A stretch of DNA of 64,000 nucleotides from an uncultured Actinomycetota bacterium (lineage in GTDB: Bacteria; Actinomycetota; Thermoleophilia; Gaiellales; F1-60-MAGs149): NCBI GenBank assembly GCA_963767885.1, contig CAVYFW010000023.1:74231-138230 (forward strand), written 5' to 3'. The notes under the pieces were generated by a model that saw only the letters and a program-made list of their open reading frames with translations, was not told the DNA's origin and searched no databases. Each line of letters begins with the position of its first letter. Position 1 is the first letter of the stretch. Below are positions 5,546 through 64,000 of the stretch, piece by piece. The position numbers were made by a program, and so were the translations under genes.

Positions 5546-6477
5546 TGGCCGCGGCCGTGGGGGCGATGCGGGCGCGCGCGACCGGCACGGCGTGGCCCGC
5601 GGTCACCGCCATGCTGCTGCTCTTCGCCCTCACCTTCCCGGCCATGAAGGCGGCGACGACCGGCCTCGGCGTCGGCACGGCGACGTCGCTGCGGTTCGTG
5701 ATCGCGAGCGCGGTGCTGCTGCCGCTCTGCTGGCGCCAGCTCGGCCACGTCGGGCCGGTCTGGCGCAAGCTCGTCTTCGCCGGGGTCGTCGGGCTCGGCG
5801 CGCAGGCGCTCTTCATGGTCGCCGGCGTCGACGCGGGGTCGGCCTCGCTCGCGGCGCTGATCCTCGGCCTGGAGCCCATCGGCATCGCCGTGTGCGCGGC
5901 CCTCGTCGGGGGCGAGCACCTCGACCGGCGCACCGTCGGCGCGCTCGCGCTCGGCTTCGCGGGCGTCGCAGTGGTCTCCGGGGCGCTGTCCGAGCCGCTC
6001 GGCGACATCCCGGCCGATGCGGTCGGCTTCCTGCTGCTCACGGTGGTGACGTTCTCCGGCTACACCGTCGCGATCCGCCGCTTCCGCGGGCAGGCCGACC
6101 CCCTGGTCATCGCGACCGTGACCACGCTCGGCGGGATGCTCGTGACGGCGCCGCTGCTCGTCCTCGACGTCGCGCGCGGGCAGGCGGTGGAGGACGTGGC
6201 GTCGCTCTCGACCGTCGTCGGCGTGACCTACATGGGCGTGGGCGCGGCGTTCGGCTACGTGCTCTTCGCCCACATCCTGGCCACGCGAGCGTCGTCGAGC
6301 CTCGCGGTCGTGCTCTACCTGCTGCCGCCGCTCGGCGTGCTGGCGTCCTGGGCGCTGCTGGGCGAGGAGCCGCACGCGCGCGACGCCGTCGGCGCGGTGT
6401 TCATCCTGTCCGCCGTCGCGCTCGCGGAGCGCGGCCGGCGACGGGCCGCCACCGCCGCGGAGGTGACCCCCACGTGA
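5545..6477 (+). CDS. EamA/DMT-family transporter
   Basis: 310 aa with about 10 hydrophobic segments arranged as two EamA-like halves. ATG overlaps the ispA stop (ATGA). Confidence 0.8.
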   Translation: MAAAVGAMRARATGTAWPAVTAMLLLFALTFPAMKAATTGLGVGTATSLRFVIASAVLLPLCWRQLGHVGPVWRKLVFAGVVGLGAQALFMVAGVDAGSASLAALILGLEPIGIAVCAALVGGEHLDRRTVGALALGFAGVAVVSGALSEPLGDIPADAVGFLLLTVVTFSGYTVAIRRFRGQADPLVIATVTTLGGMLVTAPLLVLDVARGQAVEDVASLSTVVGVTYMGVGAAFGYVLFAHILATRASSSLAVVLYLLPPLGVLASWALLGEEPHARDAVGAVFILSAVALAERGRRRAATAAEVTPT

Positions 6478-7447
6478 TCGAGCTCGAGGACGTCCGCGCG
6501 GCGGCGGGGCGCATCGCCGGCGCGGTGCACCGCACGCCCGTGCTGACGTCGCGCACGCTCGACGAGGCGACGGGCGCGCGCGTCTTCGTGAAGGCGGAGA
6601 ACCAGCAGCGCGGCGGCGCGTTCAAGCTGCGCGGCGCGACCAATCGCATCGAGGGGCGCAGCGACGCAGGAGCGCGACCGCGGCGTCTTCGCGGTGTCGT
6701 CGGGGAACCACGCGCAGGCCGTGGCCATCGCCGCGCGGCGCGCGGGGCTGCCCGCCGACGATCCTGATGCCCGAGGACGCGCCGCCGGCGAAGCTCGCGG
6801 CGACGCGCGGCTACGGCGCCGAGGTCGTGCTGTACGACCGCTACGGGCCCGAGGATCGCGACGTCATCGCCCGCGACCTCGCGGCCGAGCGCGGCCTCAC
6901 GTTCGTCCACCCGTTCGACGACGAGCTCGTGATGGCGGGGCAGGGCACGGTCGCGCTCGAGCTGCTGGAGGACGTGCCGGACCTCGACGTGCTGGTCGTC
7001 CCGGTCGGCGGCGGCGGGCTGGCGGCCGGGTGCGCCACGGCGGCCACGGCGCTCGCGCCCGGCATCCGCGTCGTCGGCGTGGAGCCCGCAGCGAGCGACG
7101 ACCACGTGCAATCGCTCGCCCGCGGGGAGCGCATCCGCGTCCCCGTGGGGCGCACGATCGCCGACGGGCAGCAGACCGACATGCCCGGGGAGCGGACGTT
7201 CGCGGTCAACAGCCGCCTGCTCGATCGCGTGGTCACCGTGGAGGACGCGGAGATCGTCGCGGCGATGGCGTTCCTGCTCGACCGCCTGAAGACCGTCGCC
7301 GAGCCCAGCGGCGCCTGCGCCCTCGCCGCCCTGCTGCAGGAGCGGGTCGGTCCGGTGGCGGGCCGGCGGGTCGGCGTCGTGCTGAGCGGCGGGAACGTCG
7401 GGGCGGCGCGGCTCGCGCGCCTCTTCGACGACTACCTCGGCCCGTAG
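6474..7447 (+). pseudogene. PLP-dependent threonine/serine ammonia-lyase family enzyme (IlvA / serine racemase-like), reading frame interrupted twice
   Basis: Motifs lie in three successive frames. Frame 0: VFVKAENQQRGGAFKLRGATNRI. Frame 1: GVFAVSSGNHAQAVAIAARRAGLPA. Frame 2: ILMPEDAPPAKL...VVPVGGGGL... Shifts are near 6650-6680 and 6752-6758, both +1. Confidence 0.8.
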
Positions 7448-7962
7448 TTGATGGCCTGGTTGGCCAGCGCGACCAGCGCGGCCTTCGGGCGGGCGACCGG
7501 ATCCTTGACCGAGAACTGGTAGAGGACGCCCTCGCGCACGAAGTGGATCTGCGCGGGCGAGCAGGACGCGCCGCAGGAGAGCGGGTAGTAGTGGCCCGGG
7601 ACGCCCTTCGCGAGCGTGACGTTGGCCGGGTCGAACAGGCGCCTGCGCTTGAGGGCGCTGAAGCTCGCCATCGCGCACGCGTTGGCCCCGTTGCAGTTGC
7701 GCACGTAGGCGAGGTCGAGCGTCCAGCTGCCCTGCGCGATCCCGGCCGTCGGGAACGCCTGGTGGCGGCCGTGGATGGTGAAGGCGTTCGGCAGGTAGAT
7801 CGCCAGCGGGCTGCGGGCGGCGATGCGCTCGATCTGCTTCGCGGCGACCGTGGGCACGTTGACGCGGGTCGTGGCGGCGCCGGCCGGTGCGGCGGCGGTC
7901 ACGGCGAGCAGGGCGAGCACGGCGACCGCCGCGACGGCGGTGCGGAGGCTACGGGTCGACAT
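7432..7962 (-). CDS. Secreted hypothetical protein (signal peptide, Cys-containing)
   Basis: 176 aa from ATG 7962. MSTRSLRTAVAAVAVLALLAVTAAAPAGA looks like a signal peptide. High GC3. No family recognised. Confidence 0.6.
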   Translation of the reverse strand: MSTRSLRTAVAAVAVLALLAVTAAAPAGAATTRVNVPTVAAKQIERIAARSPLAIYLPNAFTIHGRHQAFPTAGIAQGSWTLDLAYVRNCNGANACAMASFSALKRRRLFDPANVTLAKGVPGHYYPLSCGASCSPAQIHFVREGVLYQFSVKDPVARPKAALVALANQAINYGPR

Positions 7963-16463: not shown

Positions 16464-17594
16464 GTGCCCTGCTCCATCGCTCCGGACGCCGTCGGCCTGT
16501 TCGTGCGGCTGGCCGCGCTCGTCACGCCCTCCGGGCAGGAGCGGGCGGCCGCGGACGTCTGCCTCGCCTACCTGCGCGAGCTCGGCCTCGAGCCCGACGA
16601 GGACGAGCCGCGGCGACCATCGACGGCGACGCGGGCAACATCTACGCCCACGTCCCGGGCACGGTCGAGGGCACGCCGATCTTCCTCTGCTCGCACCTCG
16701 ACACGGTGCCGGCCGTCGCGCCGATCGAGCCGATCACGTCGAACGGGCGCATCACCAACCTCAACGACGCGATCCTCGGCGCCGACAACAAGGCCTCCGT
16801 GGCGGGCATGCTCGACGGCGTGCGGCGCGTGCTCGACGAGGGCATCCCGCACGCGGGCATCGAGCTCGTGCTGACGCCGCAGGAGGAGGTCGGGCTGCAT
16901 CGGCGTGCGCGAGTTCGACACGACGCGGCTGCGCTCGCGCGTCGGCTTCGTCTACGACCACGGCGGGCCGATCGGCGGCATCATCACCCGGGCGCCGAGC
17001 CAGAAGGCCGTCAACCTCACGTTCACGGGGGCTTCCGCGCACGCCGGCATCGAGCCCGAGCTCGGCCGCAACGCCATCCTCGCCGCCGCGCGCGCCATCT
17101 CGCGCATGCGGCTCGGACGGCTCGACGAGGGCACGACGGCCAACGTCGGCATGGTGTCGGGCGGCGCGGCGCGCAACGTGGTGCCGGATCGCTGCACGGT
17201 CGTCGGCGAGGTGCGGAGCCTCGACCACGACCGCTGCGCGACGGAGGCGGCCGCGATGATCGAGGCGGCCACGGTGTCGGCGGCCGAGACCGGCTGCGGC
17301 GTCGACGTCGACGCGCGGGAGCTCTACCGCGCCTACCGCGTGTCCACGACCTCGACGGCGTACCGTCTCGCCGTGACCGCGCTGGAGGCCTCGGGCTACC
17401 GGCCGTACGACCGCTCGACGGGCGGCGGCGCGGACACCCACGTGTTCAACGAGCGCGGCCTGGAGTGCGTGAACCTCTGCTCCGGGATGGAGCGGATCCA
17501 CACGCCGGAGGAGTACATCGACGTCGCGGACGTCGAGGGGCTGTCGCGGCTCACGGTCGAGCTGGTCCGCGCGGCCGCCGGTGTGCGGCCCTAG
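16464..17594 (+). pseudogene. M20-family metallopeptidase (PepT/ArgE-like), reading frame interrupted
   Basis: Segments ...LYLRELGLEPDEDE (frame 0), IDGDAGNIYAHVPG..CSHLDTVP..GADNKASVAGML..EEVGL (frame 2), then GVREFDTT...HAGIEPE...GGADTH (frame 0). Shifts near 16607-16615 and 16898. Confidence 0.75.
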
Positions 17595-17635
17595 CGGCCG
17601 CACAGGCGTCGACCTAGTACCATGCCTGCTCAGAC

Positions 17636-18321
17636 ATGGACGGACTCGGGCTCTACCTCCTCTTCGTGATCCCGCCCCTCGTTCTGGGGCTGATCGTCCA
17701 GCACTGGCTCAAGACGACGTTCGCGAAGAACGCGAACATCCCGGTTCAGAGCGGGCTCTCGGGCGCGGACGTCGCGCGCACGATCCTCGACCGCAACGGG
17801 CTCACCAACGTCCCCGTCGAGCAGAGCCCCGGCGGTCCGCTCTCGGACCACTACGACCCGCGCAAGCGCGCGGTCTTCCTGTCCGAGCCGGTGTACCACG
17901 GCCGCTCGATCTCGGCCGCTGCCGTCGGCGCGCACGAGGTCGGACACGCGATCCAGCACGCCAAGGCCTACAAGCCGATGCAGTTCCGCTCCGCGCTCTG
18001 GCCGGCCGTCGTCGTTCGCGTCGCAGGGCTGGATGTTCCTGCTCCTGATCGGCCTCTTCTTCCAGCTCAGCGGCCTGTTCCTGTTCGCGATCATCCTCTA
18101 CGGCGTCGTGGTGCTGTTCCAGCTCGTGACGCTGCCGGTGGAGTTCGACGCATCACGGCGCGCAGGGGCGCAGCTCGCCGCAGCTCGGGCTCGTCACCGA
18201 GCCCGAGCGCGCCGGCGTGAAGAAGGTGCTCACGGCGGCGGCGCTGACCTACGTCGCGGGCGCGCTCGCAGCGATCACGCAGCTGCTGTACTTCCTCATG
18301 CTCTACAGCAACCGCAACTAG
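17636..18321 (+). pseudogene. YugP-type putative neutral zinc metallopeptidase (membrane), reading frame interrupted twice
   Basis: HEVGHAIQH zinc motif. Continuation FASQGWMFLLLIGLFF... is in frame +1 (shift ~18010). The final ...LGLVTEPERAGVKKVLTAAALTY...LYSNRN* is in the next frame (shift ~18178). Confidence 0.75.
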
Positions 18322-43644: not shown

Positions 43645-43706
43645 TGCAAAAGCGACGTGAAAAGGCCGAATCTTGCCGTTCGGGCCGCGCTATCCCCGAG
43701 ATGCGA

Positions 43707-43720: not shown

Positions 43721-43805
43721 TTTGCCTGGACCGGTCGGCAAGCTACGCCGCACACGGCGCGGCGACGCCGCCGAGCCGACGCTCCGAAGGAGGAGGGAGA
43801 CGCGC

Positions 43806-45119
43806 ATGAGAAGGAACCCGTCGCGGTGGGCGTTGCTCCTGCTGGCCGCGCTCGTGGCCGCATTCTTGGTTGCCGCGTGCGGCGACGACGATGAGGGAGA
43901 CAGCTCCGCGGCCCCCGCCGAAACCGCGGCGGCGACGTCCGCGGCAGCAGACACGGCCGCGCCGGCGGAGTCGTCCGCCGCGGCAGCGGAGTCGTCCGTC
44001 GCACCGGTGGAGTCGTCCGTCGCAGGGGCGGAGTCGTCCGTCGCAGAGGCGGAGTCGTCCGCCGACACGGGCGGCGGCGAGGCCGTCAGCCTCGACGGCG
44101 GTGGCAAGGCCGTCACGGTCCTGATGCCGTCCACGACCAACAACTACCTCGCGGAGTGGGTGCGAGGGCTCCAGGCGGCCGCAGAGGCGAACAACTACAC
44201 CGTCAAGATCATCGAGAACAACTTCGACCAGGCCGAGCAGGACACGCAGGTCCAGCAGGAGATCGCGAGCGGCGAGAAGCCGGCCATCTACGTCTTCTGG
44301 CCCGCGGACTCCAAGGCCGGCGTCGCCTCGCTGCGCCAGCTCGCGCAGACCGACGTCCCGGTCGTCGTCGCGAACCAGCCTCCGCCGCCCGAGGCCGAGG
44401 AGTTCATGGCCTTCTACTCCGGCGTGGACGACTTCTTCAACGGGCAGGTCTCCGGCGAGCTGATGCTCAAGGCGCGCGACGCGGCGAAGGCCGCCGGCAA
44501 GCAGCTCTCCAGCGAGAACGGCAACCTGCTGGAGATCAAGTTCGCGCCGGGCTACCAGGCCTCCGAGGCGCGCACCGCCGGCTTCACCGACGCCACCAAG
44601 GACGCGCCGTTCGACGTCCTCGCGTCCGAGTACGCAGGCTTCGACAACGAGGCGGGCTACAACACGACCTCGCAGCTCATCGCGGCCAACAAGTCGAAGG
44701 GCATCGACTTCCTGTACGCCCACAACGACGCCCTCGCGGCCGGCGCGATCCAGGCCATCAAGGAGGCCGGGCTCGTGCCGGGCAAGGACATCTGGGTGGT
44801 CGGCGGCACCTGCCACGGCGACCTGTCCGCGCTCGAGGCCGGTGAGCAGTTCGGCTCCGGCCTGCAGGCCGCGCGCCTGGAGGGCCAGGGCGTGCTGCTC
44901 GACGTCGCGCGCTACTTCGCCAACGGCGAGACCGTCAACGACGGCAAGTTCTACGGCGAGCCGACGGCGGAGCCGCCGACGGAGACGGGCCCGATCTCGC
45001 GGTACAACTACATCCCGAACCCGGGCGTGCAGTTCACCTCGGATCCGGCCGAGAACAAGCGCCTGCTGGACGAGACCATGCTCTGGGGCGACAGCATGCG
45101 CAACCTCTGCACCTACTAG
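43806..45119 (+). CDS. Sugar ABC transporter substrate-binding lipoprotein (RbsB/type-1 periplasmic binding fold)
   Basis: 437 aa. RBS AAGGAGGAGGGAG. Lipobox LVAAC. Low-complexity linker, then VTVLMPSTTNNY...AHNDALAAGAIQAIKEAG. Confidence 0.85.
   Translation: MRRNPSRWALLLLAALVAAFLVAACGDDDEGDSSAAPAETAAATSAAADTAAPAESSAAAAESSVAPVESSVAGAESSVAEAESSADTGGGEAVSLDGGGKAVTVLMPSTTNNYLAEWVRGLQAAAEANNYTVKIIENNFDQAEQDTQVQQEIASGEKPAIYVFWPADSKAGVASLRQLAQTDVPVVVANQPPPPEAEEFMAFYSGVDDFFNGQVSGELMLKARDAAKAAGKQLSSENGNLLEIKFAPGYQASEARTAGFTDATKDAPFDVLASEYAGFDNEAGYNTTSQLIAANKSKGIDFLYAHNDALAAGAIQAIKEAGLVPGKDIWVVGGTCHGDLSALEAGEQFGSGLQAARLEGQGVLLDVARYFANGETVNDGKFYGEPTAEPPTETGPISRYNYIPNPGVQFTSDPAENKRLLDETMLWGDSMRNLCTY
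43965..44069 (+). repeat. Five tandem 21-bp in-frame repeats (G[C/T]GGAGTCGTCCG[T/C]CGC...) encoding the (A/V)ESS(V/A)Axx linker of the binding protein
   Basis: Units start at 43965, 43986, 44007, 44028, 44049. Confidence 0.85.
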
Positions 45120-45197
45120 CTCGACCGAAGGCAGTCCCGGGCCCGGGTCGGGCCGCCGCGACCGGCGGTCCGACCCGGGCCCTCTATCCGGCTCCAG

Positions 45198-45994
45198 GTG
45201 GAGGACATGGGGAAGCTCGACAATCGCGTCGCCCTCGTCACGGGCTCGGCCCGCGGCCTCGGCGCCGGCATCGCCCGCGCGCTGGCCGCGGAGGGCGCGA
45301 CCGTGGTCTGCGCCGACGTGATCGACGCCGTCGGAGACCGCGGCCAGCCTGCCGGCGCGGCTCCGGCGGCACCGCGGCCGAGGCCGCCCGACTCGACGTC
45401 ACCGATCGCCAGGCCTGCTTCGCGCTGGTCGACGACATCGTGGCGCGCCACGGCCGGCTCGACATCCTCTGCAACAACGCGGGCGTCGCGCAGCCCATCG
45501 AGGACATCGTCGACTCCGCGGAGGCGACGATCGACCGGGTGCTGGCCGTCAACGTCAAGGGCGTGATCAACTGCACGGCCGCCGCGGCGCGGCCGATGAA
45601 GGCGCAGGGATACGGCCGCATCGTCAACACGGCGTCGCAGGTCGGAAAGCGCGCCTGGCCGGGTTGGGGCGTCTACTCGGCCTCGAAGTTCGCGGTCATC
45701 GGCGTGACCCAGGTGGCGGCGCTGGAGCTGGCCAAGGACGGCATCACCGTCAACGCCATCTGCCCCGGCACGATGGTCACGGACATGATGTACACCGGGT
45801 TCGGCGAGGCCGCGCAGACCGCCGGCGCCGACCGCGACGAGCTCATCGCCACCCACGCCGCGGGCATCCCGCTGGGCCGCATGGGCACCGCCGACGACAT
45901 GGGGCGCATGGCCGCGTGGATCGCCTCCGACGACGCCGGCTACACCACGGGCGCGCAGTTCAACCTGACGGGCGGCGAGGCGGTCTTCTTCTGA
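45198..45994 (+). pseudogene. Short-chain dehydrogenase/reductase, frame interrupted twice within ~30 nt
   Basis: ALVTGSARGLGAGIA...VVCADVIDAV (frame 0), ETAASLPA (frame 1), GSGGTAAEAARLDVTD...NNAG...YSASKFAV (frame 2). Shifts ~45335 and ~45357. Confidence 0.75.
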
Positions 45995-46467
45995 TGGCGA
46001 CGCCGCCGTTCGACCATCTCGGCATCCTCGTCGACGACCTCGACGAGGCCATCCCGCGCTGGGAGCGGCTGCTCGGCGTGACCTTCATGGCCGCACGCAC
46101 CGTGCACGTCGACCGGATGGTCGAGGCGGACGGCAGCGAGGGCGAGCTCGACCTGCGGATCGCCTTCAGCGTCGACGGCCCGCCGCGCTACGAGCTGCTG
46201 GAGGTCGTCGGGGACGGGGTCTACGGCCCCGGCAACGCCGGCGGCCTGCACCACGTCGCGATCCTCTGCGACGACGTCGAGGGCGAGCGCGAGCGCCTGG
46301 TCGGCCTCGGCGCCCGGGTGATCGGCGGGCAGTACCGGCCGGACGGCAGCGCGATCGTGTCGTACCTCGATCGCGGCGTCCTCGACGGGCTGCCGGTCGA
46401 GCTGCTCGACGCCACGGTCGCCGACGCCATCGGGGCCTGGGTGCGCGGCGAGGAGGCGACGCCGTGA
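45994..46467 (+). CDS. VOC/glyoxalase-family protein
   Basis: 157 aa, [15 protein letters not shown]...[15 protein letters not shown] overlaps the upstream stop (ATGA). Confidence 0.75.
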
Positions 46468-48037
46468 GTGCCGACGGCGCGCTGCTGGTGGCGGCGCGGG
46501 GCATCTCGAAGCACTACGGCCCGGTCCGGGCGCTCGACGACGTCTCGTTCGAGCTGCGCCGCGGCGAGGTCATGGCCCTGCTCGGCGAGAACGGCGCCGG
46601 CAAGTCGACGCTGGTGAAGATCCTCGTCGGGCCTCGTCGATGCCGGACGACGGCACCATCGAGATCGACGGCCAGCCCGCCGATCTCTCCAGCGCCCGCC
46701 GCTCCCGGGCGGCCGGCATCGCGGTGGTGCAGCAGGAGCTGAGCCTCGTGCCGACCCTCACGGCCGGCGAGAACGTCTTCCTCGGCGGGCGCTTCGGCGG
46801 CCTCTGGACGGGCCGGCGGGTGGCCGAGCGGGCGCGGCCCGTACCTGGCGCAGGTCGGGCTCGGCGACCTGAACCCGCGCACCTACGTCGTCGTCGCTCT
46901 CGGTGGCCGAGCGCCAGCTCGTCGAGATCGCGCGGCTGCTGGCCCGCGACGCGCGCATCCTGATCCTCGACGAGCCGACGGCGGCGCTCTCCGACGTCGA
47001 GATCGCGCGCGTGAACCGCGTCGTCCGCTCGCTGGCCGACGCGGGCAAGGGCGTGATCTACGTGACGCACCGCCTGGGCGAGGTCTTCGACATCGGCGAC
47101 CGGGCGACGGTCTTCCGCAACGGCAAGAGCGGCGAGCCGCCGTCCGCGTCGCCGAGCTGACCATCGACAGCCTCGTCGAGCGCATGCTCGGACGGCCGCT
47201 GGAGGCGATGTTCCCGCCGCGCGCGGAGACGTTCGGCGACCTGCGCCTCGAGGTCGAGGGCCTCGAGGCGCCCGGGCTCGTGGAGCCCGTCAACCTCACG
47301 CGTGCGGCAGGGCGAGATCCTCGGCCTCGCCGGACAGATCGGCTCCGGTGCGCCGACGCTGCTGCGCGCGGTCGCCGGCATCGCGCTCACGGCCACGGGC
47401 ACCGTGCGCGTGGACGGCGAGGACGTGCCGAGCCACTCGCTGCAGCGCGCGATCGCCCGCGGGATCGCCTACTGCTCCGACGACCGCAAGCGCGACGGCG
47501 TCTTCCAGATCAAGACCGTGACCCAGAACCTGACGGCGCCGGCGCTCGATCGCGTGAGCCCGGGCGGCATCATCTCCCGCTCCAAGGAGCGCGCCCTGGC
47601 CCGGCAGCTCGCGTCCTCGTTCGCCATCGACCAGAGCCGCCTCGGGTTCTACGCCCGCACGCTCAGCGGCGGCAACCAGCAGAAGGTCGCTCTCGGCAAG
47701 TGGCTCGGCGTGGAGCCGCAAGGTCCTGCTGGTGGAGGAGCCGACGCGCGGCGTCGACGTCGGCGCCCGCGCCGAGATCTACAGCCACCTCCGGCGCCTC
47801 GCGTCGGAGGGCATGGCCGTCGTGTTCGCGTCGACCGACCTCCCGGAGGTGCTCGGCCTGGCGGACACCGTGGCGACCTTCTACCGGGGGCGCCTCGTCC
47901 GCGTCGCGCCCGCGGCCGACCTCAGCCAGGCGGAGATGATGCGCGACGTGACGCACGAGCGGGCGGAGGCCGCGCCCGCGGCGGGCGCGCCGTCCGCGAC
48001 CGCAGTGCTGCCCCCGTTCTCCGGCGGCAGCGCATGA
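46464..48037 (+). pseudogene. Sugar ABC transporter ATP-binding protein (tandem ATPase domains, RbsA/MglA-like), frame interrupted about eight times
   Basis: [87 protein letters not shown] all lie in frames advancing 0,1,2,0,1,2,0,1,2. Confidence 0.8.
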
Positions 48038-49020
48038 GTGCCGAGACCACGATCCGCTCCGAGGGGATGCTGGACAGGGTCGACCGGCGCAAGCTCGTCG
48101 GCCCGGCCGTCATCGGCGGGGCCGTGGTGCTGCTGCTGATCGTCGGCGGCATCCTCGAGCCGAACTTCCTGTCCTACGACAACCTGCTCGCCGTCGTGCG
48201 TGCGGCGTCGATCGTCGGCATCGCCGCCGTCGGCATGACCTTCATCACGCTGACCGGCAACTTCGTCTCGCTCTCCACCGAGCAGACCGCGATCATCTCC
48301 GGGATCCTGTTCGCGCTCGCGCTGTCCAACGGCTGGCCCGTGGCGCTGGCGGCGCTGGTCACGTTCGCCGCGGCGATGGCCATCGGACTCGTGCAGGGCG
48401 CGATCGTCGCCGCTCGGCATGAACCCGATCGTGACGACGCTCGGCGCCGGCGCCGCCATCTTCGGCCTCGCGAACGTGCTCACGGACAACCGCACGCGTC
48501 AACACGCGCACCGACGCCGGCCGACTGGATCGGCACCGCGCGGCCCGCCGGCATCCCCACGCAGGTCATCGCGTTCGCGGTGCTGACGGTGGTCACGATG
48601 CTCGTGCTCTCGCGCACCCGCTTCGGGCGCCGCGTCATGCTGACGGGCGCCAACCGCGCGGCGGCGACGGCCACCGGCCTCCGGGTCGCCACGACGACGA
48701 TCCTGGCCTTCGTGATCGCGAGCGGCTTCGCGGCCCTCTGCGGGATCATGGTCATCTCGCAGGTCGGGCAGGCGAAGACCACCAACTTCGAGGGCTTCAC
48801 GATCGACGTCGTCGCCGCGGTGCTCGTCGGCGGCACGGCGATCCAGGGCGGCGAGGGCTCGACGCTGCGCACCGCGATGGGCGCCATCTTCATCGCCCTG
48901 CTCGCCAACTTCATGCTGATCCGGGACTACTCGTACGGCGTCCGCCTCGTGATCACGGGCATCGTCGTGGCGGTAGCGGTCGTCGGCTTCCACCTGCTGC
49001 GGACGAGGAACGCCGGATGA
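48034..49020 (+). pseudogene. Sugar ABC transporter permease (RbsC/AraH type), frame interrupted about three times
   Basis: The ORF is open, but 48415-48520 reads as Arg-rich nonsense. Shifted frames give LGMNPIVTTLGAGAAIFGLANVLTDNRT / VNTRTDAG / ADWIGTARPAGIPTQV. Confidence 0.7.
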
Positions 49021-50042
49021 CCTACCGCTTCCTCACGCCCGCGCTCATCGGGCGCCTCATCCTGCTCGCGCTCGTCTGGCTCAGCTTCGCGGTCACCACC
49101 GAGCAGTACCGCGTCGTTCGACAACCTCTACGCGATGCTCGAGGGCTTCGCGCTGCTGGGCCTCGTGGCGCTCGGCGTCGCCGTGACCATGATCGCCGGC
49201 GAGCTCGACCTCTCCGTCGCCTCCGTGGCCGCCGTGGCCGGCATCATCGCCGTCGAGCTGTCGGAGCTCGGCCTCGTGCCGTGCGTGCTCGTCGGCCACC
49301 CTCTGCGGCGCTCGCCTTCGGCGCGGTGCAGGGCTTCGTGATCGCCCGCACCGGCATCAACTCGCTGGTGTTCACGATCGTCGACGCTGATCGGCATTCG
49401 CGGCGTGGCGTTCGTGTCTGGCGCCGACCCCGACGCTGCTCCCGCTCGACCGCATCGACATCAGCGACACGATCGTGCAGCGGTTCTGGATCTTCTCGCC
49501 GTTCAGCCTGACGACGATCGCCGTGATGGTGGTGGTCGGGTTCTTCCTGGCCTACACGACGTGGGGGCGCGAGATCTACGCCATCGGCGGCGGCCGGCAC
49601 GAGTCGGCGCGGTGCCGGCGTCTCGCACGGCCGGGCGATGGTGCTGGCCTTCGCGCTCTCGGCCGGCTGCGCGTCGCTGGCCGGCTCGCTGGCCGCGCTG
49701 AAGTCGGCCTCGGCGGCGCCGTTCGCCTTCGAGCCGCTGCTCCTGTCGGCCGTCACGGCGGCGCTCGTCGGCGGCATCTCGCTGTACGGCGGTCGCGGCA
49801 ACGTGTTCTCGCTCGCGGTCGGCGTGCTGACGCTGCGGTTCCTCATCTCCGGCTTCTCGGCCCGCGGCGCGCCGATCTACATCGAGAGCCTGGCCACCGG
49901 CCTGCTGCTGCTGGGGGTGCTCGTGGTCGAGTTCTCGACGGAGAGCCGCCAGGTGGCGGAGTGGCGCGAGCGGCGCGCGCTCAGACGTACGCTGGCCACG
50001 CCGACGGCGGGCCCGTCACCACCGGCGCAGCCGTCGACATGA
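49017..50042 (+). pseudogene. Second sugar ABC transporter permease, frame interrupted about six times
   Basis: Hydrophobic permease segments lie in frames 0,1,2,0,1,2,0 (e.g. ...MLEGFALLGLVALGVAVTMIAGELDLS, ALAFGAVQGFVIARTGINSLVFTI, FWIFSPFSLTTIAVMVVVGFFLAYTTWGREIYAIGG, MVLAFALSAGCASLAGSL...). Confidence 0.7.
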
Positions 50043-50809
50043 GCGGCGGGACCCACGAGGGCGCGGTGGCGATCGTCACCGGAGCCGGCAGCGGCCTGGG
50101 CCGGGCGGCGACGCTCGCGCTGGCGGCCGAGGGCGCCACGGTGCTGGGCGTCGACCTGCAGCCCGACGCGGTCGCGGCGCTGGAGCCGGCCGGGGGCCGG
50201 ATCGTGGCGCACGGCGCCGACGTGACGCAGGCGACGAGGTGCGCGGCTACGTGGCGCGGGCGCGCGGACGAGCTCGGCGGCGTCGACCGCTTCTTCAACA
50301 ACGCCGGCGTCGGCGGCTTCCACAAGGACCTGGTCGACCTCGAGGACGACGAGTGGGACGCCCACATGGCGATCAACCTCCGCTCCGTGTTCCTCGGGTT
50401 GAAGCACGTCATGCGCGCGATGATCGACCAGGGCCGCGGCGGCACGATCGTCAACACCGGATCGCTGCTGTCGCTGAAGGCCGCGCCGGGCCGCGGCGAC
50501 TACACGGTGGCCAAGCACGGCGTGGCCGGCCTGACCCGCACGGCCGCCGCGGAGGGCGCCCGGCACGGCATCCGCGTCAACTGCATCTGCCCGGGGCCGA
50601 TCGACACGCCGCTGATGGCGGAGTCGGAGCGCCTCGTGAACCCCGGCGATCCGGGCTGGGAGCGGCGCCGCTTCGAGGAGGGCACGCCGCTCGGCCGCTA
50701 CGGCCGGCCCGAGGAGGTCGGCGAGGCGGTGTCGTGGCTCCTCTCCGACCGCGTCCCGTACATGACCGGATCGCTCGTCGTCCTCGACGGCGGCATCCTC
50801 GCCGTCTGA
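50039..50809 (+). CDS. Short-chain dehydrogenase/reductase (open ORF with a short internally frame-scrambled patch)
   Basis: AIVTGAGSGLGRA, NNAG, YTVAKHGVAGL, PGPIDTP. ATG overlaps the permease stop (ATGA). See the finding on 50229-50268. Confidence 0.8.
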   Translation: MSGGTHEGAVAIVTGAGSGLGRAATLALAAEGATVLGVDLQPDAVAALEPAGGRIVAHGADVTQATRCAATWRGRADELGGVDRFFNNAGVGGFHKDLVDLEDDEWDAHMAINLRSVFLGLKHVMRAMIDQGRGGTIVNTGSLLSLKAAPGRGDYTVAKHGVAGLTRTAAAEGARHGIRVNCICPGPIDTPLMAESERLVNPGDPGWERRRFEEGTPLGRYGRPEEVGEAVSWLLSDRVPYMTGSLVVLDGGILAV

Positions 50810-52177: not shown

Positions 52178-52979
52178 ATGGACATGGTGGGCACGGAGCA
52201 GTTCCGCGATCGCGTCGTGCTCCTGGTGGGCGCGGCGACCGGCATGGGGCGCGCGACGGCCGACGCGTTCGCCGGCGGTCGGGGCGACCGTCGTCATGGG
52301 CGACGTCAACCCCGCGATCGACGCGGCGTGGGACGAGGTGCAGGCGGCCGCGCCCGGGACGAAGGGCTTCGCGACGCGCATCGACGTCACCGACCTCGAC
52401 TCGTGCCGGGCGGCGGTCGAGCGCACCGTCTCGGAGTTCGGCCGCATCGACGTCCTGGCCAACTTCGCCGGGGTGATCCAGGAGGCGCACGACGTCGAGT
52501 CGCTGCCGGTCGAGGAGTGGGACCGCGTGATCGGCATCAACCTGCGCGGCCACTTCCTGATGGCCAAGGCGGCGGTGGGGCAGTTCAAGGCGCAGCGCTC
52601 GGGGCGGATCGTCCTGATCACGTCGATCTGGAGCCACGAGGGCTTCGACCTGTTCTCCGCCTACTGCGCCTCGAAGGGCGGCCTCAAGCTCTTCACGCAG
52701 TCGCTGGCCAAGGAGATGATCCCGTACGGCGTCAACGTCAACGCGATCGCGCCGGGCATCATCAACACGGAGCTCCACCAGAAGGCGCTGCGCGACGAGG
52801 CCACGGCGCGGGGCTGGTCGTACGACGACGTGCGCGAGAAGGAGTGGGGCAAGATCCCGACCAAGCAGGCCGGGTCGCCGGAGGACGTCGCCAAGGGCGT
52901 GCTCTACCTGTCCTCGGACGAGGCGAGCTACGTCGTCGCCGCGACCCTCGACATCAACGGCGCGATCCTGATCCGCTGA
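52178..52979 (+). pseudogene. Short-chain dehydrogenase/reductase, frame interrupted once
   Basis: VLLVGAATGMGRATADAFAG then +1 shift (~52278) into ...VVMGDVN...NFAGV...YCASKGGLKL...PGIINT. Confidence 0.75.
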
Positions 52980-53952: not shown

Positions 53953-55105
53953 TCACGCTGCCACCACCGGGGCAGGGACGCGGCTCCGCCAGACCCCCGC
54001 GACGACCACCAGCGCGGGGACGACCAGCGCCCCGACCGCGTGCTGGAGCCCCACGACGGGCTCCAGCACGACCGTGCTCGCCGGCAGCGCGATCGCCGTC
54101 AGCGCCCCGCACGCCATCACGGCGCTGGCCGCCAGCCGGTCGTCGTGGGTCGCCGCCGCGAGCCGCGCCATGCCGAGCGCGAGGATCGGCCCGATGCTGC
54201 CGCCGATCAGCGCGGCGGCCGCCACCACCATGGCGGCGTCCGGCGCGGCGCCGAGCAGCAGCAGCCCGACCACGACGCCGCCGGAGCACACCGCGAGCAC
54301 GCGCGCCTCGCCGAGCCGCGTGAGGAAGGCGGCGACGGTCAGCCGGGAGAGGAACAGCGCCCCCATGTAGACCGCCGTCAGGGCGCTGGCGGCGGCCACG
54401 GAGACGGCGAACTCGTCGTGCGCGAGCTGCGCCAGCCAGAGCGGCACGACGTTCTGGATGCCGAGCGAGAGCGACGCCACGGCGAGCGCCCAGCGCGCCC
54501 GGGCCGACAGGTGGCCCATGCGGAGCGTCATGCGCGGCGACGGCCAGCCGGCCCCAGCGACCCGCCCAGGGGACGTAGAGCAGCAGCCCGACGGCCACGA
54601 GCACGAACCCCGCGCGCCAGGAGACCCCGGCCTCGAGCAGCGCGGCGATCGCGAGCGGGGCCACGAAGGCACCGGCGCCGCCGCCGACGTGGAACAGCGA
54701 CAGGGCGCGCGCCCGGAACGGGCCGGCCAGCGCGGACAGCTCCGACTGCGCGCGGGCGTTGAGGGCGTAGATCCCCACGCCTGCGAACGTCATCGCGGCC
54801 ACGAGGCCGGGGAAGCCGCCCAGGGTCGCCGCGACGAGGGCCGCCGCCGCGACGAGCGCCATGGGCCGGGGGCGGAACACGCGCCGGTCGGACAGCCCGA
54901 CGGCGAGCGCGCCCGCGATCATGCCCGCCGTCTGGGCGACGTAGAGCAGCGCGATCTGGCCGTAGCCGATCGACAGGTCGGGCCGCATGTCGGGCGCCGT
55001 CGTGCCGACGAGCCCCAGCACCGCGGCGGCCAGCGGGCTGGGCGGGAAGAGCCACCAGGGGAGCCGCGGGCGCGTCCCGGCCGGCTCCCGGGTCGTCAGC
55101 CCCAC
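53953..55105 (-). pseudogene. MFS transporter, frame interrupted once
   Basis: The N-terminal half (...IALLYVAQTAGMIAGALAVGLSDRR...) and C-terminal half (...LAVASLSLGIQNVVPLWLAQL...) are in successive frames, with the shift ~54550. Confidence 0.7.
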
Positions 55106-55884
55106 GCGACCACGCCGTCGGGGTGCCGCTCGTGCACGCGCGGGTCGTGGCTCGGCAGGAACGTCCCGCCCTGCGCCCGCGTCCAGGCCATCGCCTCCAG
55201 GCAGCGGGCGACGTCCTCCAGGGCGCCCACGGGGTGGTCGTCCTCGAGGTTGCGGTACGTCCAGACGGTGTCGCCCGGGTGCACGACCGGGCCGTCGCCC
55301 GTCGCGATCACGACCCCCGCGCTGTCGACGGCGTGCCCGCCGAGGTAGCGGATCGCGATGCCGTCGAGCGGGGTCGGCCCGTCCTCGCACGCCTGCACCC
55401 GCCCGCCGCGCTCCGCCCGCAGGAAGCGCAGGGCGTGCGCGGGGTACAGCGGGTCCGGCAGGAGCTGCGGCAGCCGGGCGGCGACGTCGTCCAGCCGCGC
55501 CAGCGCCTGCGCCGAGACGAGGACGCGGGCGCGGGGGAAGCGGTCGATGTTCCACACGTGGTCGGCGTGCGCGTGCGTGAGCACGATCGCCTCGACGTCG
55601 TCGGGCCGCACGCCGTGCCGCGCCAGCAGGGTCTCGACCGGGCGGTCGGGCACGGTCGCCCGCACGAGCCCGCGCTCGCCGACCGTGCCGCGCAGGAAGC
55701 CGTTGAACGGGTCGAGGTCGTCCATCCCGCAGTCGACCAGCACGCGGCGGTCGCCGGACTCCAGCAGCAGCACGTGGTAGTCGAACCGCTCCCAGGCGTC
55801 GAAGCCGGCCTGCAGCCGCACCTGCGCCCCCGGCACGTCCTGCGACGCGTAGTGCAGCAGGCGCACCGTCCACGTCGTGGTCAT
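55096..55884 (-). CDS. MBL-fold hydrolase (lactonase-like)
   Basis: 262 aa with LTHAHADH motif. Confidence 0.78.
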   Translation of the reverse strand: MTTTWTVRLLHYASQDVPGAQVRLQAGFDAWERFDYHVLLLESGDRRVLVDCGMDDLDPFNGFLRGTVGERGLVRATVPDRPVETLLARHGVRPDDVEAIVLTHAHADHVWNIDRFPRARVLVSAQALARLDDVAARLPQLLPDPLYPAHALRFLRAERGGRVQACEDGPTPLDGIAIRYLGGHAVDSAGVVIATGDGPVVHPGDTVWTYRNLEDDHPVGALEDVARCLEAMAWTRAQGGTFLPSHDPRVHERHPDGVVAWG

Positions 55885-57585
55885 CGGGCTCCGGGCGCGA
55901 GCACGTCGAGGTCGGCGCCGAGGTTGGCCTGCAGGACGCCGAGGGCGTGGATGCGCCGCCAGCCGCGCTCCGGCGGCACGGGCGGCGTCCACGCGGCGCG
56001 CCGGCGCTCCAGCTCCGCCGGGTCGACGAGCAGGTCGAGGCTGCCGGCGCGCGACGTCGAGCGCGATCTCGTCGCCGTCGCGCACGAGCGCCAGCGGCCC
56101 GCCGACCGCGGCCTCGGGGCGCGCAGTGCAGGACGATCGTGCCGTACGCGGTGCCGCTCATGCGGGCGTCGGAGATCCGCACCATGTCGCGCACGCCGGC
56201 CGCCGCGAGCCGCCGCGGCAGCGGCAGGGCGCCGGCCTCCGGCATCCCCGCGGCGACGGGCCCGGCGTTGCGCAGCACGAGCACGTCCTCCGGCATCACG
56301 TCGAGGGCGGGATCGTCGATGCGGGCGGCGAGGTCGGCCGGCGAGTCGAACACCCGCGCCCGTCCGCGGTGGCGCAGCAGCGCGGGCGTCGCCGCGGCGG
56401 GCTTCATCACCGCGCCGTCGGGCGCCAGCGAGCCGCGCACGACGGCGAGGCCGCCGGGCGGGCGCGACCGGGTCGTCGAGGCCGCGGATCACCCGCTGCC
56501 AGTCGCCGGGCGGCGGTGCCGCGTCGGCGATCGCGCCGAGCGTGGGGCCGGCGACGGTGCGCGCGTCGGGCTCCAGGAACGGCCGCAGGACGCGCAGCAG
56601 GGCGGGCACGCCGCCGGCGCGGTGCAGGTCCTCCAGGTAGCCCGAGCCGCTCGGCTTGCACGTCGACGAGCACGGGCACCTCGCGCGCCACGGCGCCGAT
56701 GTCGTCCAGCGAGAGCGGGACGCCGGCGCGGCGGGCGATGGCCAGCAGGTGCACGATCGCGTTCGTGGAGCCGCCGATGGCGGCCAGCACCACGAGCGCG
56801 TTGTGGAACGCGCGGCGGTCGAGCACGTCGGCGGGGCGCACGGGATCGACGGCGAGCCGCGCGGCCAGGCGGCCGGCCCGCTCGCCGTGCGCCAGCCGCT
56901 CGCCCGTCGGCGCCGGCGCGGTGGCGGAGCCCGGCGTCGACATGCCGAGGGCCTCGGCCAGGATGGCCATCGTCGAGGCCGTGCCCATGACCATGCACGT
57001 GCCGGCGGTGGGGCAGAGGGCGCCCTCGACGGAGGCGATGTCGTCGGCGCCCAGCACGCCCGCGCGGTGCTCCGCCCAGTACGCGCGGCAGTCCGTGCAC
57101 GCTCCGGTGCGCCGGCCGCGCCACTCGCCGGCCAGCATCGGGCCCGACACCACCTGCACGGCCGGCACGCCCGCGGAGGCCGCCGCCATCAGGTGGGCGG
57201 GCACGGTCTTGTCGCAGCCGCCCACCAGCACGACCGCGTCGAGCGGCTGGGACCGCAGCTGCTCCTCGAGCGCCATCGCCGCGAGGTTGCGGTAGAGCAT
57301 CGCGGTCGGCGAGAGCAGGGGCTCGCCCAGCGCCATGGTGGGGAAGACCATCGGCAGCGCCCCGCCCGCCGCGACGCCGCGCGCGATCGCCCGCACGAGC
57401 TCCGGCATCTGCCGGTGGCAGGGCACGTAGTCGCTGGAGGTGTCCGCGATGGCGACGACGGGCGAGGCGAGGTGCTCGTCGAGCCCCGCCGCGCGCAGGA
57501 AGGCGCGGCGCAGGAACCAGCTGAAGTCGCGATCGCCGTACTCCGTGAGCCCGCGCTCGAGGCCGCGGGCCTGCCCGTCGCTCAC
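55881..57585 (-). pseudogene. IlvD/Edd-family dehydratase (sugar-acid dehydratase-like), frame interrupted about four times
   Basis: VGGCDKTVPA, CPTAGTCMVMGTASTM (first frame); GVPALLRVLRPFLEPDARTVAGP...; GSLAPDGAVMKPAA...RISDARMSGTAYG; ...LVRDGDEIALDV...; LLVDPAELERRR... These lie in successive frames. Confidence 0.78.
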
Positions 57586-58497
57586 GTCGCGTCGTCCGCG
57601 GGGGCGCTGACCTCCCGGAGCGCGGCGAGCACGCTCGTGAAGTCGTCGTCGGCGTGCCCGCGGGCCAGCGCCAGCGTCATCTGCTGCGCCGCCGCCGCGC
57701 CGACCGGCACGGGGACGCCGCTGCGGGTGGCCAGACCCAGCGCCAGGCCGAGGTCCTTCGCGGCGAGCCGCGTCGCGAAGCCGGGGGTGAGGTCGCCGGC
57801 CAGCGCCTTCTCCTGGTACGTGACGGCGAGGTGGGTGTTGGCCGCCGCGCCGGCGAGGAGCACGCGCAGCACGACGTCCCGCGGCAGCCCGGCCCGCTCC
57901 GCGAGGGTCAGCGCCTCGGCGTTGGCGGCGACGATGGTGGTCGTCAGGAGGTTGTTCACGAGCTTCATGGTGCTGCCCGCGCCGGCCGGACCGCAGTGGG
58001 TGATGGTGGTGGCCATCGGCTCCAGCACCGGGCGCCAGGCCTCCAGGAGGTCGGCGTCGCCGCCCACCATCAGGCTCAGCTCGCCCCGCACGGCGTGCGC
58101 GGACGTGCGCCCGACGGCGGCGTCGAGCATGCGGCCGCCCGCGGCGCGCACCTGCTCGTGCAGCCGCCGGCTGGTGGCCGGGTCGATCGTGCTCATCTCG
58201 ATCAGGGTGCCGCCCTCGAGCGCCTCGAGCACGCCGTCCGGCCCCGTCACCGCCTCCATGACCGCCGCGTCGTCCGGCAGCATCGTGATGACGACGTCCG
58301 ACGCGGCCGCGACCGCCGCCGGCGTCGCCACGGTCACGGCGCCGCCGCCGCGCCGACTCGTCCGCCCGCTCGGCGACGCGGTCGCAGGCCACCACGGGGA
58401 AGCCGCCGGGATCGAGCAGCCGCGCCGTCATCGGCCCGCCCATGGCGCCGAGCCCGACCACGCCGACCGCGGTGCGCCCGTCAGCGCGGCGGGGCAT
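57582..58497 (-). pseudogene. NAD-binding 3-hydroxyisobutyrate / 6-phosphogluconate dehydrogenase-like oxidoreductase, frame interrupted once
   Basis: VGVVGLGAMGGPM Rossmann start, then shift (~58345) into ...SDVVITMLPDD...GAGSTMKLVNN... Confidence 0.75.
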
Positions 58498-60561: not shown

Positions 60562-61537
60562 TCGAGCGCGGCGCCCGCGTCGTCATCCAGGGGGCGACGG
60601 GGCGCGAGGCCCGGATGGTCGTCCGCCACATGCTGGCCTACGGCACCCCGGTCGCGGCCGGCGTCACGCCGGGGCGGGGCGGGGAGGACGTGGAGGGCGT
60701 GCCGGTCCACGACAGCGTCGAGGACGCGGTCGCCGCCGGCGGCCCGATCGCGGCCTCCCTCGTGTCCGTGCCGCCCGCGGCCACCCTCGACGCCGCCTGC
60801 GAGGCACTCGCCGCCGGCGTCGGCGCTGCTGGTGGTCGCGACGGAGAACGTGCCGCGGCTCGACGCCGCCCGCCTCGTCGCGCGGGCCCGCGAGCACGGG
60901 GCGACCGTCGTCGGGCCCAACTCCGTCGGCCTGATCCGGCCCGGCGAGCGCATGAAGCTCGGCGCGATCGGCGGCGACGACGCCGACCGCGCGTTCGCTC
61001 CGGGGCCCGTCGCCGTGATCTCGCGCAGCGGCGGCCTCACCGTCGAGACGGCGCTGGGCCTGCGGCTGGCCGGCCTCGGGGTCTCGACCGCCGTGTCCGT
61101 CGGCGGCGACGCCATCGTCGGCACGCCGCCGGCCGGGCTCGCCGAGCGCCTCGCCGCCGACCCGGGCACGCGCGCCATCGTCGTCGTCGGCGAGCCGGGC
61201 ACCCGCCACGAGCTCGACCTGGCCGACGCCATCGCCGCGGGCCGCATCGGGGTGCCGGTGGTGGTGCACGTGCCCGGCCGCTTCATGGAGGACTTCCCGC
61301 AGGGCATGCGCTTCGGGCACGCCGGCGCCGTCATCGGCGGGCGACGACGAGCGGCCCGGCCCCAAGCTGCGCGCGCTGGCGGCGGCCGGCGCGCTCGTCG
61401 CCGAGACCTACGGCGAGATCGTGCCGCTCGTGCGCGACGCCCTCGCCCGAGACCACGTGCCGGCGCCGTCGATCGACGCGGCACCCATGGCCGCCGGCCC
61501 GCCCGCCGGCCGCGTTCGCGCATCAGGAGGACGATGA
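60558..61537 (+). pseudogene. Succinyl-CoA-synthetase alpha-subunit-like CoA-binding protein, frame interrupted twice
   Basis: VVIQGATGREARM (frame 0), ...VISRSGGLTVE...FGHAGAVIGG (frame 1, shift ~60825), ...PKLRALAAAGALVAETYGEIV... (frame 2, shift ~61338). TGA 61535-61537. Confidence 0.72.
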
Positions 61538-61538: not shown

Positions 61539-62872
61539 ATGGCGCTTCCGACCTACGGGGCCAACGCGGTCGACTGGGAGGCCCGGATCGACCACCAGAA
61601 GCTGCGGGAGGACCGCCTGGCGCGCGCCCGCGCGGCGATCGAGCAGGCCGGCATCGGTGCCTTCCTCTGCTTCGACAACGCGAACATCCGCTACATCACG
61701 GCCACCCAGATCGGCACGTGGTCGGAGGGCAAGGCCGGCCGCTACTGCCTGCTGCCGCGGGGCGGCGAGCCGCACCTGTGGGACTTCGGCTCGGCGGCGC
61801 GGCACCACCAGATCTACTGCCCCTGGCTCGGCGACCGCTCCCAGCCCGGCATCGCGACCCAGCACGGCGCGATGCCCCGCGAGGCGAAGCGGCCGGAGGT
61901 CATCGCCAACCGCATCGCCGAGGTGCTGCGCGAGCACGACCTCATGGACGCGCCGCTCGCCGTCGACATCGCGCACCCGCCCGTGCTGTTCGCGCTGCAG
62001 CGGCTGGGGCTCGAGATCGTCGACGGCCAGGAGCTGCTGCTCAAGGCCCGCGCGGTCAAGACGACGGAGGAGATCCGGCTGCTCACGCAGGCCTGCACGC
62101 TCGTCGACGCCGCGTACGAGGCGCTCTACGAGCTGATGCGGCCGGGCGTGCGGGAGAACGACTGCGTGGCGGAGGTCAACCGCGTCCTCTACTCGATGGG
62201 CTCCGAGTTCGTCGAGGGCGTGAACGCCATCTCCGGCGAGCGCTGCAGCCCGCACCCGCACAACTTCTCCGACCGCGTGCTGCGGCCCGGCGACCCCGTC
62301 TACTTCGACATCATCCACTCCTACCAGGGCTACCGCACCTGCTACTACCGGACGCTCGCCATCGGCTCCGCCTCGCGCCCGATCGTCGACGCCTACAAGC
62401 GCTGCCGGTACTACCTCGACATCGCGATCGACGCGCATGCGCCCCGGCATCACGACGGCCGACATCGCCAGCCTGTGGCCGAGGCGCCGAGGAGTTCGGC
62501 TTCCCCAACGAGGAGGCCGCGTTCGCGCTGCAGTACGGCCACGGCGTCGGCCTCGCGGTGTGGGAGAAGCCGCTGATCAGCCGCATGGTCTCGCTCGACC
62601 ACCCCGAGCCCATCGAGGAGGGCATGGTGATCGCGCTCGAGACCTTCTGGCCGTCCTCCGACGGCTGGAGCGCGGCGCGCATCGAGGAGCAGCTCGTGGT
62701 GACGAAGGACGGGTGCGAGGTCATCACGCGCTTCCCGGCCGAGGAGCTGCTGGTCGCGGGGCACCGCTACTACACGACGGGCGGCGCGCTGCCGCTGGAG
62801 CGGGACCACGAGTCGCACCGCAACCGCGACGGCGCCGCCATGCCGGCTGCGCACTCCGGGGCGCCGTCGTGA
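61539..62872 (+). pseudogene. M24-family metallopeptidase-fold enzyme (creatinase/Xaa-Pro dipeptidase-like), frame interrupted twice
   Basis: RBS AGGAGG. ...GDPVYFDIIHSYQGYRTCYYRT... (frame 0), PGITTADIASLWP (frame 1), ...FALQYGHGVGLAVWEKP...VIALETFW...RIEEQLVVT (frame 2). Shifts ~62437 and ~62480. Confidence 0.75.
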
Positions 62873-62914
62873 TGCGCCGGGTGCCCGCGCCGGGAGCCAG
62901 GGAGGAGCACGCCC

Positions 62915-64000
62915 ATGAAGGCCGCCGTCTACCACGGGCAGCGCGACCTGCGGATCGAGGACGTCCCGAAGCCGCAGGCGGGCCCGGGCGAGCTGCTGCT
63001 CGAGGTGCACAGCGTCGGCGTCTGCGGGACCGACGCCGGCGAGTGGGAGCACGGGCCCGTTCATCTACTCCGTGCCGGGCCCGCACCGCGTCACCGGGCA
63101 CACCGGCCCGCTGATCCCGGGCCACGAGCTCTCCGGGCGCGTGGTCGAGATCGGGCCGGGCGTGGAGGGCTTCGAGATCGGGGCCGTCGTGACGTGCGGC
63201 GCGGGCTACACGATCGACACCGACGAGGAGGTGCAGCGCGGCCGGCCCGAACCTGTCGTCCGCACTACGCGACGGTCGGCCTGCAGCGCCACGGCGGGCT
63301 CGCGCAGTGGGTGACGGTGCCGGCGGAGATCTGCGTCGACGTGCGGCCGTACGGCCTCGGCGACGACGGCGCGGCGCTGGCCCAGCCGGTGGCCATCGCC
63401 GTGCACTCCATGCGCCGCGGCCGGCTGCAGCCGGGCGAGCAGGCGCTCGTGATCGGCGCCGGCGGCATCGGCGTCTTCCTGCTCTACGCGGCCGTCGAGC
63501 TCGGCGCGCGGGTCGCCGTCGCCGACCTCGACGAGGTGCGCCTCGGCATCGCCCGCGACCTCGGCGCCCACGACCTGATCGACGCCCGCGAGGGGCCGCT
63601 GCCGGAGCTCCTCGCGGCGCGCGGCATCCGCCCGGACGTCGATCTACGAGGTCACGGGCAGCGACGCCGGCCTGCGCAGCGCCATCACGTCGGCGCCCGA
63701 ACGGCTCGCGCGTCGTGCTCGTCGGCCTCCACGAGCACCCCCGCGAGATCGACGTCCGGCGCGTGACGCTCGGCGAGATCGACCTGCTCGGCACGAACGC
63801 GCACGTCTGCGACGTCGACCTGCCGGAGGCGGTGCGCGTGCTGTCGACGCGGCCGCAGGGCTGGGCCGACATCGCGCCGACGGCCTTCCCGCTCGAGCTC
63901 CTGCTGGAGGAGGGGATCCTGCCGATCGTCGAGCGCCGGGCGACGCGCATCAAGACGCTGATCGATCCCTGGGCGGATGCGCCGCGGGACGCGCTGACGG
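62915..64000 (+). pseudogene. Zn-dependent medium-chain alcohol/polyol dehydrogenase, frame interrupted about five times; runs off the window end
   Basis: MKAAVYHGQRDLRIEDVP..VGVCGTD, PGHELSGRVVEIG, HYATVGLQRHGGLAQ..VIGAGGIGV, IYEVTGSDAGL, GSRVVLVGL... lie in frames 2,0,1,2,0,1. No stop before 64000. Confidence 0.75.

Follow-up and report, generated by a model that had tools for sequence, protein, structure and literature searches.

The stretch analysed here, the window, comprises 64,000 nt of the genome of an uncultured Actinomycetota bacterium (G000:C23:74231-138230), in which genes for sugar uptake, peptidases, dehydrogenases and other functions change reading frame at about fifty points. 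These frame breaks are most probably errors in the consensus of a long-read metagenome assembly rather than features of the organism's DNA (we put the probability at about 0.93). The extra bases do not appear to be real because the pattern extends genome-wide and reaches rpoB and rpoC, and because the breaks are private when the window is set against relatives that are 87-96% identical.

Frame breaks are spread through the genome

The source genome measures 5,003,979 bases in 25 contigs at 74.5% G+C, and its estimated completeness is 67% despite the small number of contigs. The same holds for several relatives within the family (10 contigs and 61% completeness; 10 contigs and 66%). Long-read metagenome-assembled genomes in which indels break the genes typically show this pairing of high contiguity and low marker completeness. 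Because a G+C content of 75% leaves many frames open, we followed the reading frame by codon usage instead of by plain open reading frames (ORFs). Codon log-odds were trained on 911 long ORFs from the source genome with a high G+C content at third codon positions (GC3), and a seven-state Viterbi model (non-coding plus three frames per strand) assigned the frames; a simple sliding-window GC3 plot had been too noisy for strand calls.

Run over the entire genome, the model returned 3,525 frame events, 2,894 of them (82%) +1. All 25 contigs are affected, at 3.4-10.8 events per 10 kb. The frame breaks are a genome-wide phenomenon, not peculiar to the window locus. The matches to rpoB (TIGR02013) and rpoC (TIGR02386) are each divided between two frames, with one +1 switch in rpoB near C25:52023 and one in rpoC near C25:47713 (region G000:C25:45496-54103). 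Contigs C25 and C4 have the lowest error density in the genome.

Genes of the window are whole once the frame is corrected

Within the window the model places 59 same-strand frame switches. Eleven lie at most 12 nt from a stop in the old frame and are candidate ordinary gene junctions; the remaining 48 have no stop nearby and divide into 38 '+1' and 10 '+2' switches, in good agreement with the estimate of about 50 single-base frame breaks in the first-pass annotation of this DNA. At base level, the '+2' switches that we checked are paired single insertions (45328 and 45357; 46626 and 46639; 47138-47139) or gene junctions. The earlier view that the frame always advances by +1 describes nearly all events rather than every one, as a few single-base deficits are also present (e.g. 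at ~50232). Local predictions fared similarly well. The two breaks expected within about 10 nt at 46630-46645 are extra bases at 46626 and 46639, 13 nt apart; the roughly eight breaks proposed for the ABC ATPase are eight extra bases by alignment to close relatives; and the roughly six proposed for permease 2 come to about five extra bases by base-level comparison.

Upon frame correction, Pfam matches span the switches from end to end (ILVD_EDD_N 2-314/316, ILV_EDD_C 2-191/191, MFS_1 1-346/347, Zn_peptidase_2 1-217/218, Peptidase_M24 2-208/208 and all acyl-CoA dehydrogenase domains). The frame-corrected translations of the affected window genes contain no in-frame stops and show neither domain loss nor large deletions. 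Full-length, stop-free domains are what was to be expected from the earlier reading that these genes lack in-frame stops and motif decay.

Extra bases are private to individual assemblies

Alignment to orthologues, proposed in the first pass as a way of placing each extra base, was carried out against sequences that include L009, L011, L012, L098, L099 and L100, and the extra bases are mostly absent from relatives that are 87-96% identical. No record matched the clean substrate-binding protein of the window (43806-45119) exactly, and near-identical cluster members were used instead. One of the contigs reached in this way, L009, is a 7.9-kb ENA contig that is 96.5% identical to window positions 42462-50371 and encodes a substrate-binding protein 99% identical to the clean one of the window; 41 single bases of the window have no counterpart in it. 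As L009 is itself fragmented, a third sequence was needed to assign the errors site by site. A contig from a Logan short-read run with an intact operon (L011) provided the protein reference for frameshift-aware protein-to-DNA alignment. Against this intact homologue the ATPase of the window needs six single-base skips and one double skip, and that of L009 eight single-base fills and one skip; the error positions all differ between the two, except for a common insertion at 46639.

A short JGI metagenome contig of 87% identity (L012) carries the ATPase and permease 1 without a frameshift. All 8 extra bases of the window's ATPase and all 3 of its permease 1 lack a counterpart there (the window bases absent from L012 are 46625/6, 46638/9, 46841, 46889/90, 47138-40, 47300, 47718, 48410, 48496/8, 48519, 49113 and 4928x), and wherever L009 has a gap, L012 matches the window. 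Thus, the window has insertions and L009 has deletions. In the ATPase, the deletions of L009 form a mirror error in that 8 of 8 fall at third codon positions. Single sites illustrate the relation: at 46626 the window reads CTCG, L009 CTC and L012 CTG, and at codon 48496 the window has ACGC where L009 has ACCG, so that both err, with two bases in opposite order.

Substitutions between the window and L009 follow the codon structure. Third codon positions hold 151 of the 224 mismatches (6.2% of sites, versus 1.2-1.3% at each of the first two positions), and most mismatches exchange G and C. This concentration at third positions indicates that the affected genes, 'broken' as they stand in the assembly, evolved under purifying selection. 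Family-level relatives (G004 and G010) were rejected as references, their orthologous loci being frameshift-garbled themselves. In these two ABC-transporter loci (L003 in G004:C1 and L002 in G010:C8), both from genomes of few contigs, long ORFs alternate between real protein and Arg/Pro-rich nonsense.

The right part of the window (48.5-64 kb) is 90-93% identical to three sibling contigs, L098, L099 and L100, which have consecutive ENA analysis accessions and Flye-style contig names. In a four-way alignment each assembly has its own one-base insertions (14 private to the window, 22 to L098, 25 to L099 and 18 to L100), and private deletions are few. The window-private insertions coincide with switches of the model (52272, 54540, 56052, 56116, 56460, 56659, 58671, 60824, 61339 and 62485). 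Positions of insertions co-localise between the window and L099 (rho 0.53), with values near 0 for the other pairs. The ilvD gene is intact in L098 (524 amino acids), and the window, L099 and L100 each have it broken at other points; skipping four single bases brings the ilvD of the window to 95% identity with the L098 protein. The frame-corrected proteins are 92-98% identical to their intact siblings in six of the seven genes tested, and the MFS transporter is 82% identical.

A protein of 403 amino acids encoded in a clean part of the window (59350-60558) falls into a 90%-identity cluster whose representative in the protein collection has the same length and is 100% identical to it. Other members of this cluster measure 63, 94, 191, 283, 365 and 729 amino acids on long ENA contigs, and 402-403 amino acids on short JGI contigs. 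Separate +1 mutations in the same conserved genes of each lineage, with the short contigs intact, are not credible as biology; an error specific to each assembly is.

The inserted base mostly differs from its neighbors

The four assemblies together have 75 private insertions, 57 of them next to a codon third position. The inserted base is unlike the adjacent third-position base in 55 of these 57, and in 47 the two form a C/G pair; identity with the third base by chance would be about 38%, a rough estimate from base composition and not a computed result. Because only 20 of the 75 inserted bases equal either neighbor, the insertions are not homopolymer errors. The breaks show diverse four-base words (CTCG, GTCG, CCCG, ACGC, CCGC, GCCG, ATCG, GTGC, GCGC and others), which follow the pattern N1N2 plus two different strong bases. 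At base level the extra base is mostly, as noted in the first pass, a G or C at a C/G junction. This context is ubiquitous: the third base and the next base are CG or GC at 49% of ordinary codons, counted in five clean ORFs, and no methylation-type motif is evident at the break sites.

Breaks come in bursts separated by long clean runs

The description of the breaks as bursts that spare long neighboring stretches is accurate for the window and extends to the genome. The stretches named earlier as clean are clean in the model as well (303-6464, 10143-16446, 37979-41723, 43950-45116 and 59347-60546), and further clean stretches include 18904-25436 and 30564-35120. Compared with L009 and L010, the clean part at 42462-45141 shows merely 2-3 indels, all of them intergenic. 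Divergence from L009 is about four times higher in the dirty block at 45.3-50.3 kb than in the clean part at 42.5-45 kb.

Across the genome, the variance-to-mean ratio of events in 5-kb bins is 5.5, and 202 bins are empty versus 29 expected under a Poisson distribution. The 340 dirty blocks make up 13% of the genome and hold 75% of the events; their median length is 1.5 kb and the largest measures 8 kb. Clean runs of at least 6 kb number 202, the longest reaching 30 kb. Frameshift density has no relation to local G+C genome-wide (Spearman 0.002), which leaves coverage dropout that depends on G+C unsupported as a cause. It had been argued that uniform sequencing error could not leave clean runs of 6 kb. 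Uniform error is indeed excluded, but a patchy consensus artefact gives the same pattern, so that the clean runs do not by themselves speak against an error.

Origin of the extra bases

Given that the frame breaks are artefacts, the cause that we lean toward, plausible but unproven, is polymorphism among co-assembled strains, with both alleles written into the consensus. The strains in the co-assembly would differ at sites that are mostly synonymous G/C choices at codon third positions, and a consensus or polishing step would read the two alleles as a pair of one insertion and one deletion. Where both members of the pair were retained, a +1 would result (CTC and CTG becoming CTCG); where both were lost, a -1 would result, as in the mirror error of L009, a relative of low coverage. 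Bursts would correspond to stretches that are polymorphic in the sampled population, and clean runs to uniform stretches. The most frequent real differences in the lineage are exchanges of G and C at third positions. An error that writes both alleles fits the observations because the inserted base lies beside the third position and differs from it.

Several results limit the support for this account. The excess of insertions adjacent to third positions is modest (76% versus 67% expected, p=0.05), variability among the 90-93% identical relatives is at background level in the third-position columns affected (23% versus 21%), and insertion density follows divergence among relatives only weakly (rho 0.29, p=0.06). 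The insertion at 46639, common to the window and L009, bears on the artefact reading as a whole; either an artefact recurred at a single polymorphic site, or the two share a real mutation.

A patchwork of coverage or polishing is a live alternative as the cause of the bursts. The dirty blocks would then be patches of low read depth or patches left unpolished, such as long-read segments within an assembly polished only in part, in which insertion errors of the platform survive, and strain polymorphism would play no part. We regard this version of an artefact as possible, if on the doubtful side. It accords with the scale of the blocks (median 1.5 kb, up to 8 kb), which is close to read length, with error positions that are largely uncorrelated between sibling assemblies, and with the lack of a polymorphism excess among relatives at the affected columns. 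Platform errors, however, should prefer homopolymers, and the inserted bases match a neighbor in 20 of 75 cases and the third base in 2 of 57. The restriction of the L009 ATPase deletions to third codon positions (8/8) and the errors of the window and L009 at the same codon (48496), with the bases in opposite order, also count against it.

That the extra bases stand in the deposited sequence, and that the 96.5%-identical L009 shares one of them (46639), could be taken as signs of real mutations, which would amount to a massive recent pseudogenisation of the organism. We consider this very improbable: rpoB and rpoC would be broken as well, the siblings have different private breaks in the same genes, and the short contigs (L012 and the JGI members of the 403-amino-acid cluster) are intact. 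Ordinary pseudogene decay, already judged a poor fit in the first pass, would be expected neither to spare full domains free of stops and large deletions nor to produce the direction bias (82% +1) and the third-position substitution bias of genes under strong purifying selection.

Events that are nearly all +1 in otherwise perfectly preserved genes would also suit real insertions that are decoded, by genome-wide programmed +1 ribosomal frameshifting, by quadruplet decoding or by correction at the transcript level. Known programmed +1 sites, such as that of bacterial prfB and the frequent ones of Euplotes, occur in a defined context, shifty or with a stop, and relatives retain them. The window resembles them in its +1 direction and in the preservation of the downstream frame, whereas its sites lack a shared context, occur in one assembly only and are not conserved in relatives of 87-96% identity. 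The diversity of the four-base words, which hold no common signal, and the ubiquity of their context, which at 49% of ordinary codons offers the ribosome no cue to shift, led us to reject a recoding signal or a quadruplet codon. Rescue by transcriptional slippage is contradicted by the absence of homopolymer tracts: only 20 of 75 inserted bases repeat a neighbor, and only 2 of 57 repeat the third-position base. Decoding of real insertions is thus less probable still than pseudogenisation, and we find it scarcely conceivable that a free-living high-GC bacterium would tolerate thousands of real +1 insertions, including those in rpoB and rpoC, by correcting them, whatever their context, in RNA or on the ribosome.

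The preferred reading, a consensus error of assembly, places the window among known artefacts. Frameshift-causing indel errors are addressed by IDEEL scoring, by proovframe and by short-read polishing, and a bioRxiv preprint (10.1101/2021.08.23.457338) reportedly treats the frameshift problem that indel errors create in long-read assemblies. Indel frameshifts are a general problem of long-read assemblies and metagenome-assembled genomes (PMC9262707). The window shares with them single-base indels that truncate intact genes throughout the genome, low completeness at high contiguity, and intact relatives on short contigs. Classic nanopore errors, by contrast, concern homopolymer length and are mostly deletions, whereas the errors here are overwhelmingly insertions unlike their neighbor, beside third codon positions and strongly clustered. 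The sequencing platform was presumably long-read; Flye and Medaka are in use in large nanopore soil projects (PMC12313526), which, like the contig names, hints at platform and pipeline and is only suggestive. A closer parallel to the both-alleles error comes from the allele-specific assembly of Trypanosoma brucei Lister 427: in a collapsed long-read assembly, indel errors and false frameshifts went back to allelic variants that lie close together (PMC8445201). The same cause would fit the signature here, G/C alleles that stand side by side and the mirror deletions of L009. T. brucei is a diploid eukaryote with two haplotypes, whereas a mixture of metagenome strains is presumed for the window.

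Consequences for gene calls and databases

The frame breaks carry no biology, and what can be learned from them is of practical use. Gene calls in this genome would be broken by roughly half of the events. The breaks lower the completeness estimate (67%) and would yield false pseudogenes and falsely fused or split proteins in databases. Such errors are already present in the public protein collection, where the 63-, 94-, 191-, 283-, 365- and 729-amino-acid versions of the 403-amino-acid protein stand as fragments and fusions. The signature (a different strong base added beside the third position, in blocks of kilobases) is distinct from that of homopolymer errors and could be used to flag and correct errors of this kind in long-read genomes of high G+C content. 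Sibling genomes of the family are affected too, and comparisons within this lineage should allow for frameshifts.

Genes of the window

Affected genes and clean reference stretches of the window (positions are those of the window; ~ marks approximate positions)
Feature	Position	Strand	Frame breaks and evidence
PLP (pyridoxal phosphate)-dependent dehydratase-like gene (named by eye)	6465..7443	+	+1 switches ~6665, ~6759; Viterbi model, translation
M20 peptidase	16485..17579	+	switches ~16607, ~16897; Pfam Peptidase_M20/M20_dimer span them when frame-corrected
Zn_peptidase_2 gene	17633..18318	+	+1 switches ~18013, ~18149; Pfam match (given in the text) when frame-corrected
Short-chain dehydrogenase	24975..25687	-	+1 switches ~25436, ~25534; Viterbi model, Pfam
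Acyl-CoA dehydrogenase, adjoining gene	25688-26835		clean
MFS transporter	28983..30367	-	+1 switches ~29355, ~29839; Pfam MFS_1 match (given in the text) when frame-corrected
Phosphopentomutase-like and thymidine phosphorylase genes	35458..37930	+	+1 switches ~35995, ~37155, ~37422; 36619 is a gene junction
Clean-run example, five genes	37979..45116		no frame switch; Viterbi model
Short-chain dehydrogenase	45186..45991	+	extra bases 45328, 45357 (L009 alignment); '+2' switch of the model at 45347
Sugar ABC transporter ATPase	46464..47956	+	8 extra bases: 46626, 46639, 46841, 46889, 47138-47139, 47300, 47718
ABC permease 1	48037..49014	+	extra bases 48410, 48496, 48519
ABC permease 2	49017..49997	+	extra bases 49113, 49294, 49380, 49417, ~49607
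Short-chain dehydrogenase	50039..50806	+	base missing ~50232, extra base 50266; intact L098 protein 94% identical; four-way alignment
Short-chain dehydrogenase	52184..52976	+	extra base 52272; 98% identical to intact L098 protein
MFS transporter	53974..55099	-	extra base 54540; four-way alignment, L098 protein alignment
Dihydroxy-acid dehydratase family gene (ilvD/edd)	55884..57459	-	extra bases 56052, 56116, 56460, 56659; window-private
3-Hydroxyisobutyrate dehydrogenase-like gene	57588..58497	-	one extra base ~58344; switch of the model at 58350
Beta-like gene upstream of the succinyl-CoA ligase alpha-like gene, 403-amino-acid ATP-grasp protein	59350-60558		clean
CoA-binding (succinyl-CoA ligase alpha-like) gene	60615..61534	+	extra bases 60824, 61339
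M24 peptidase	61539..62862	+	extra bases 62485, ~62832
Probable alcohol dehydrogenase, placed by synteny only (ADH_N after the M24 peptidase in L100)	62915..64000	+	+1 switches ~63050, ~63640, ~63695

The sugar-uptake operon (43806-50806) encodes a substrate-binding protein, a short-chain dehydrogenase, a glyoxalase-like protein, the ABC ATPase, two permeases and a second dehydrogenase. Homologous operons of 62-68% identity (in L011 and in a JGI/NCBI contig) have another gene order, with the dehydrogenase and glyoxalase genes located elsewhere.

Between the MFS transporter and ilvD, the window has a segment of about 0.8 kb (55074-55866) with a gene for a protein of the metallo-beta-lactamase fold. 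This segment is missing from L098, L099 and L100, in which the MFS gene adjoins ilvD, and its presence in the window looks like a real, small difference in gene content.

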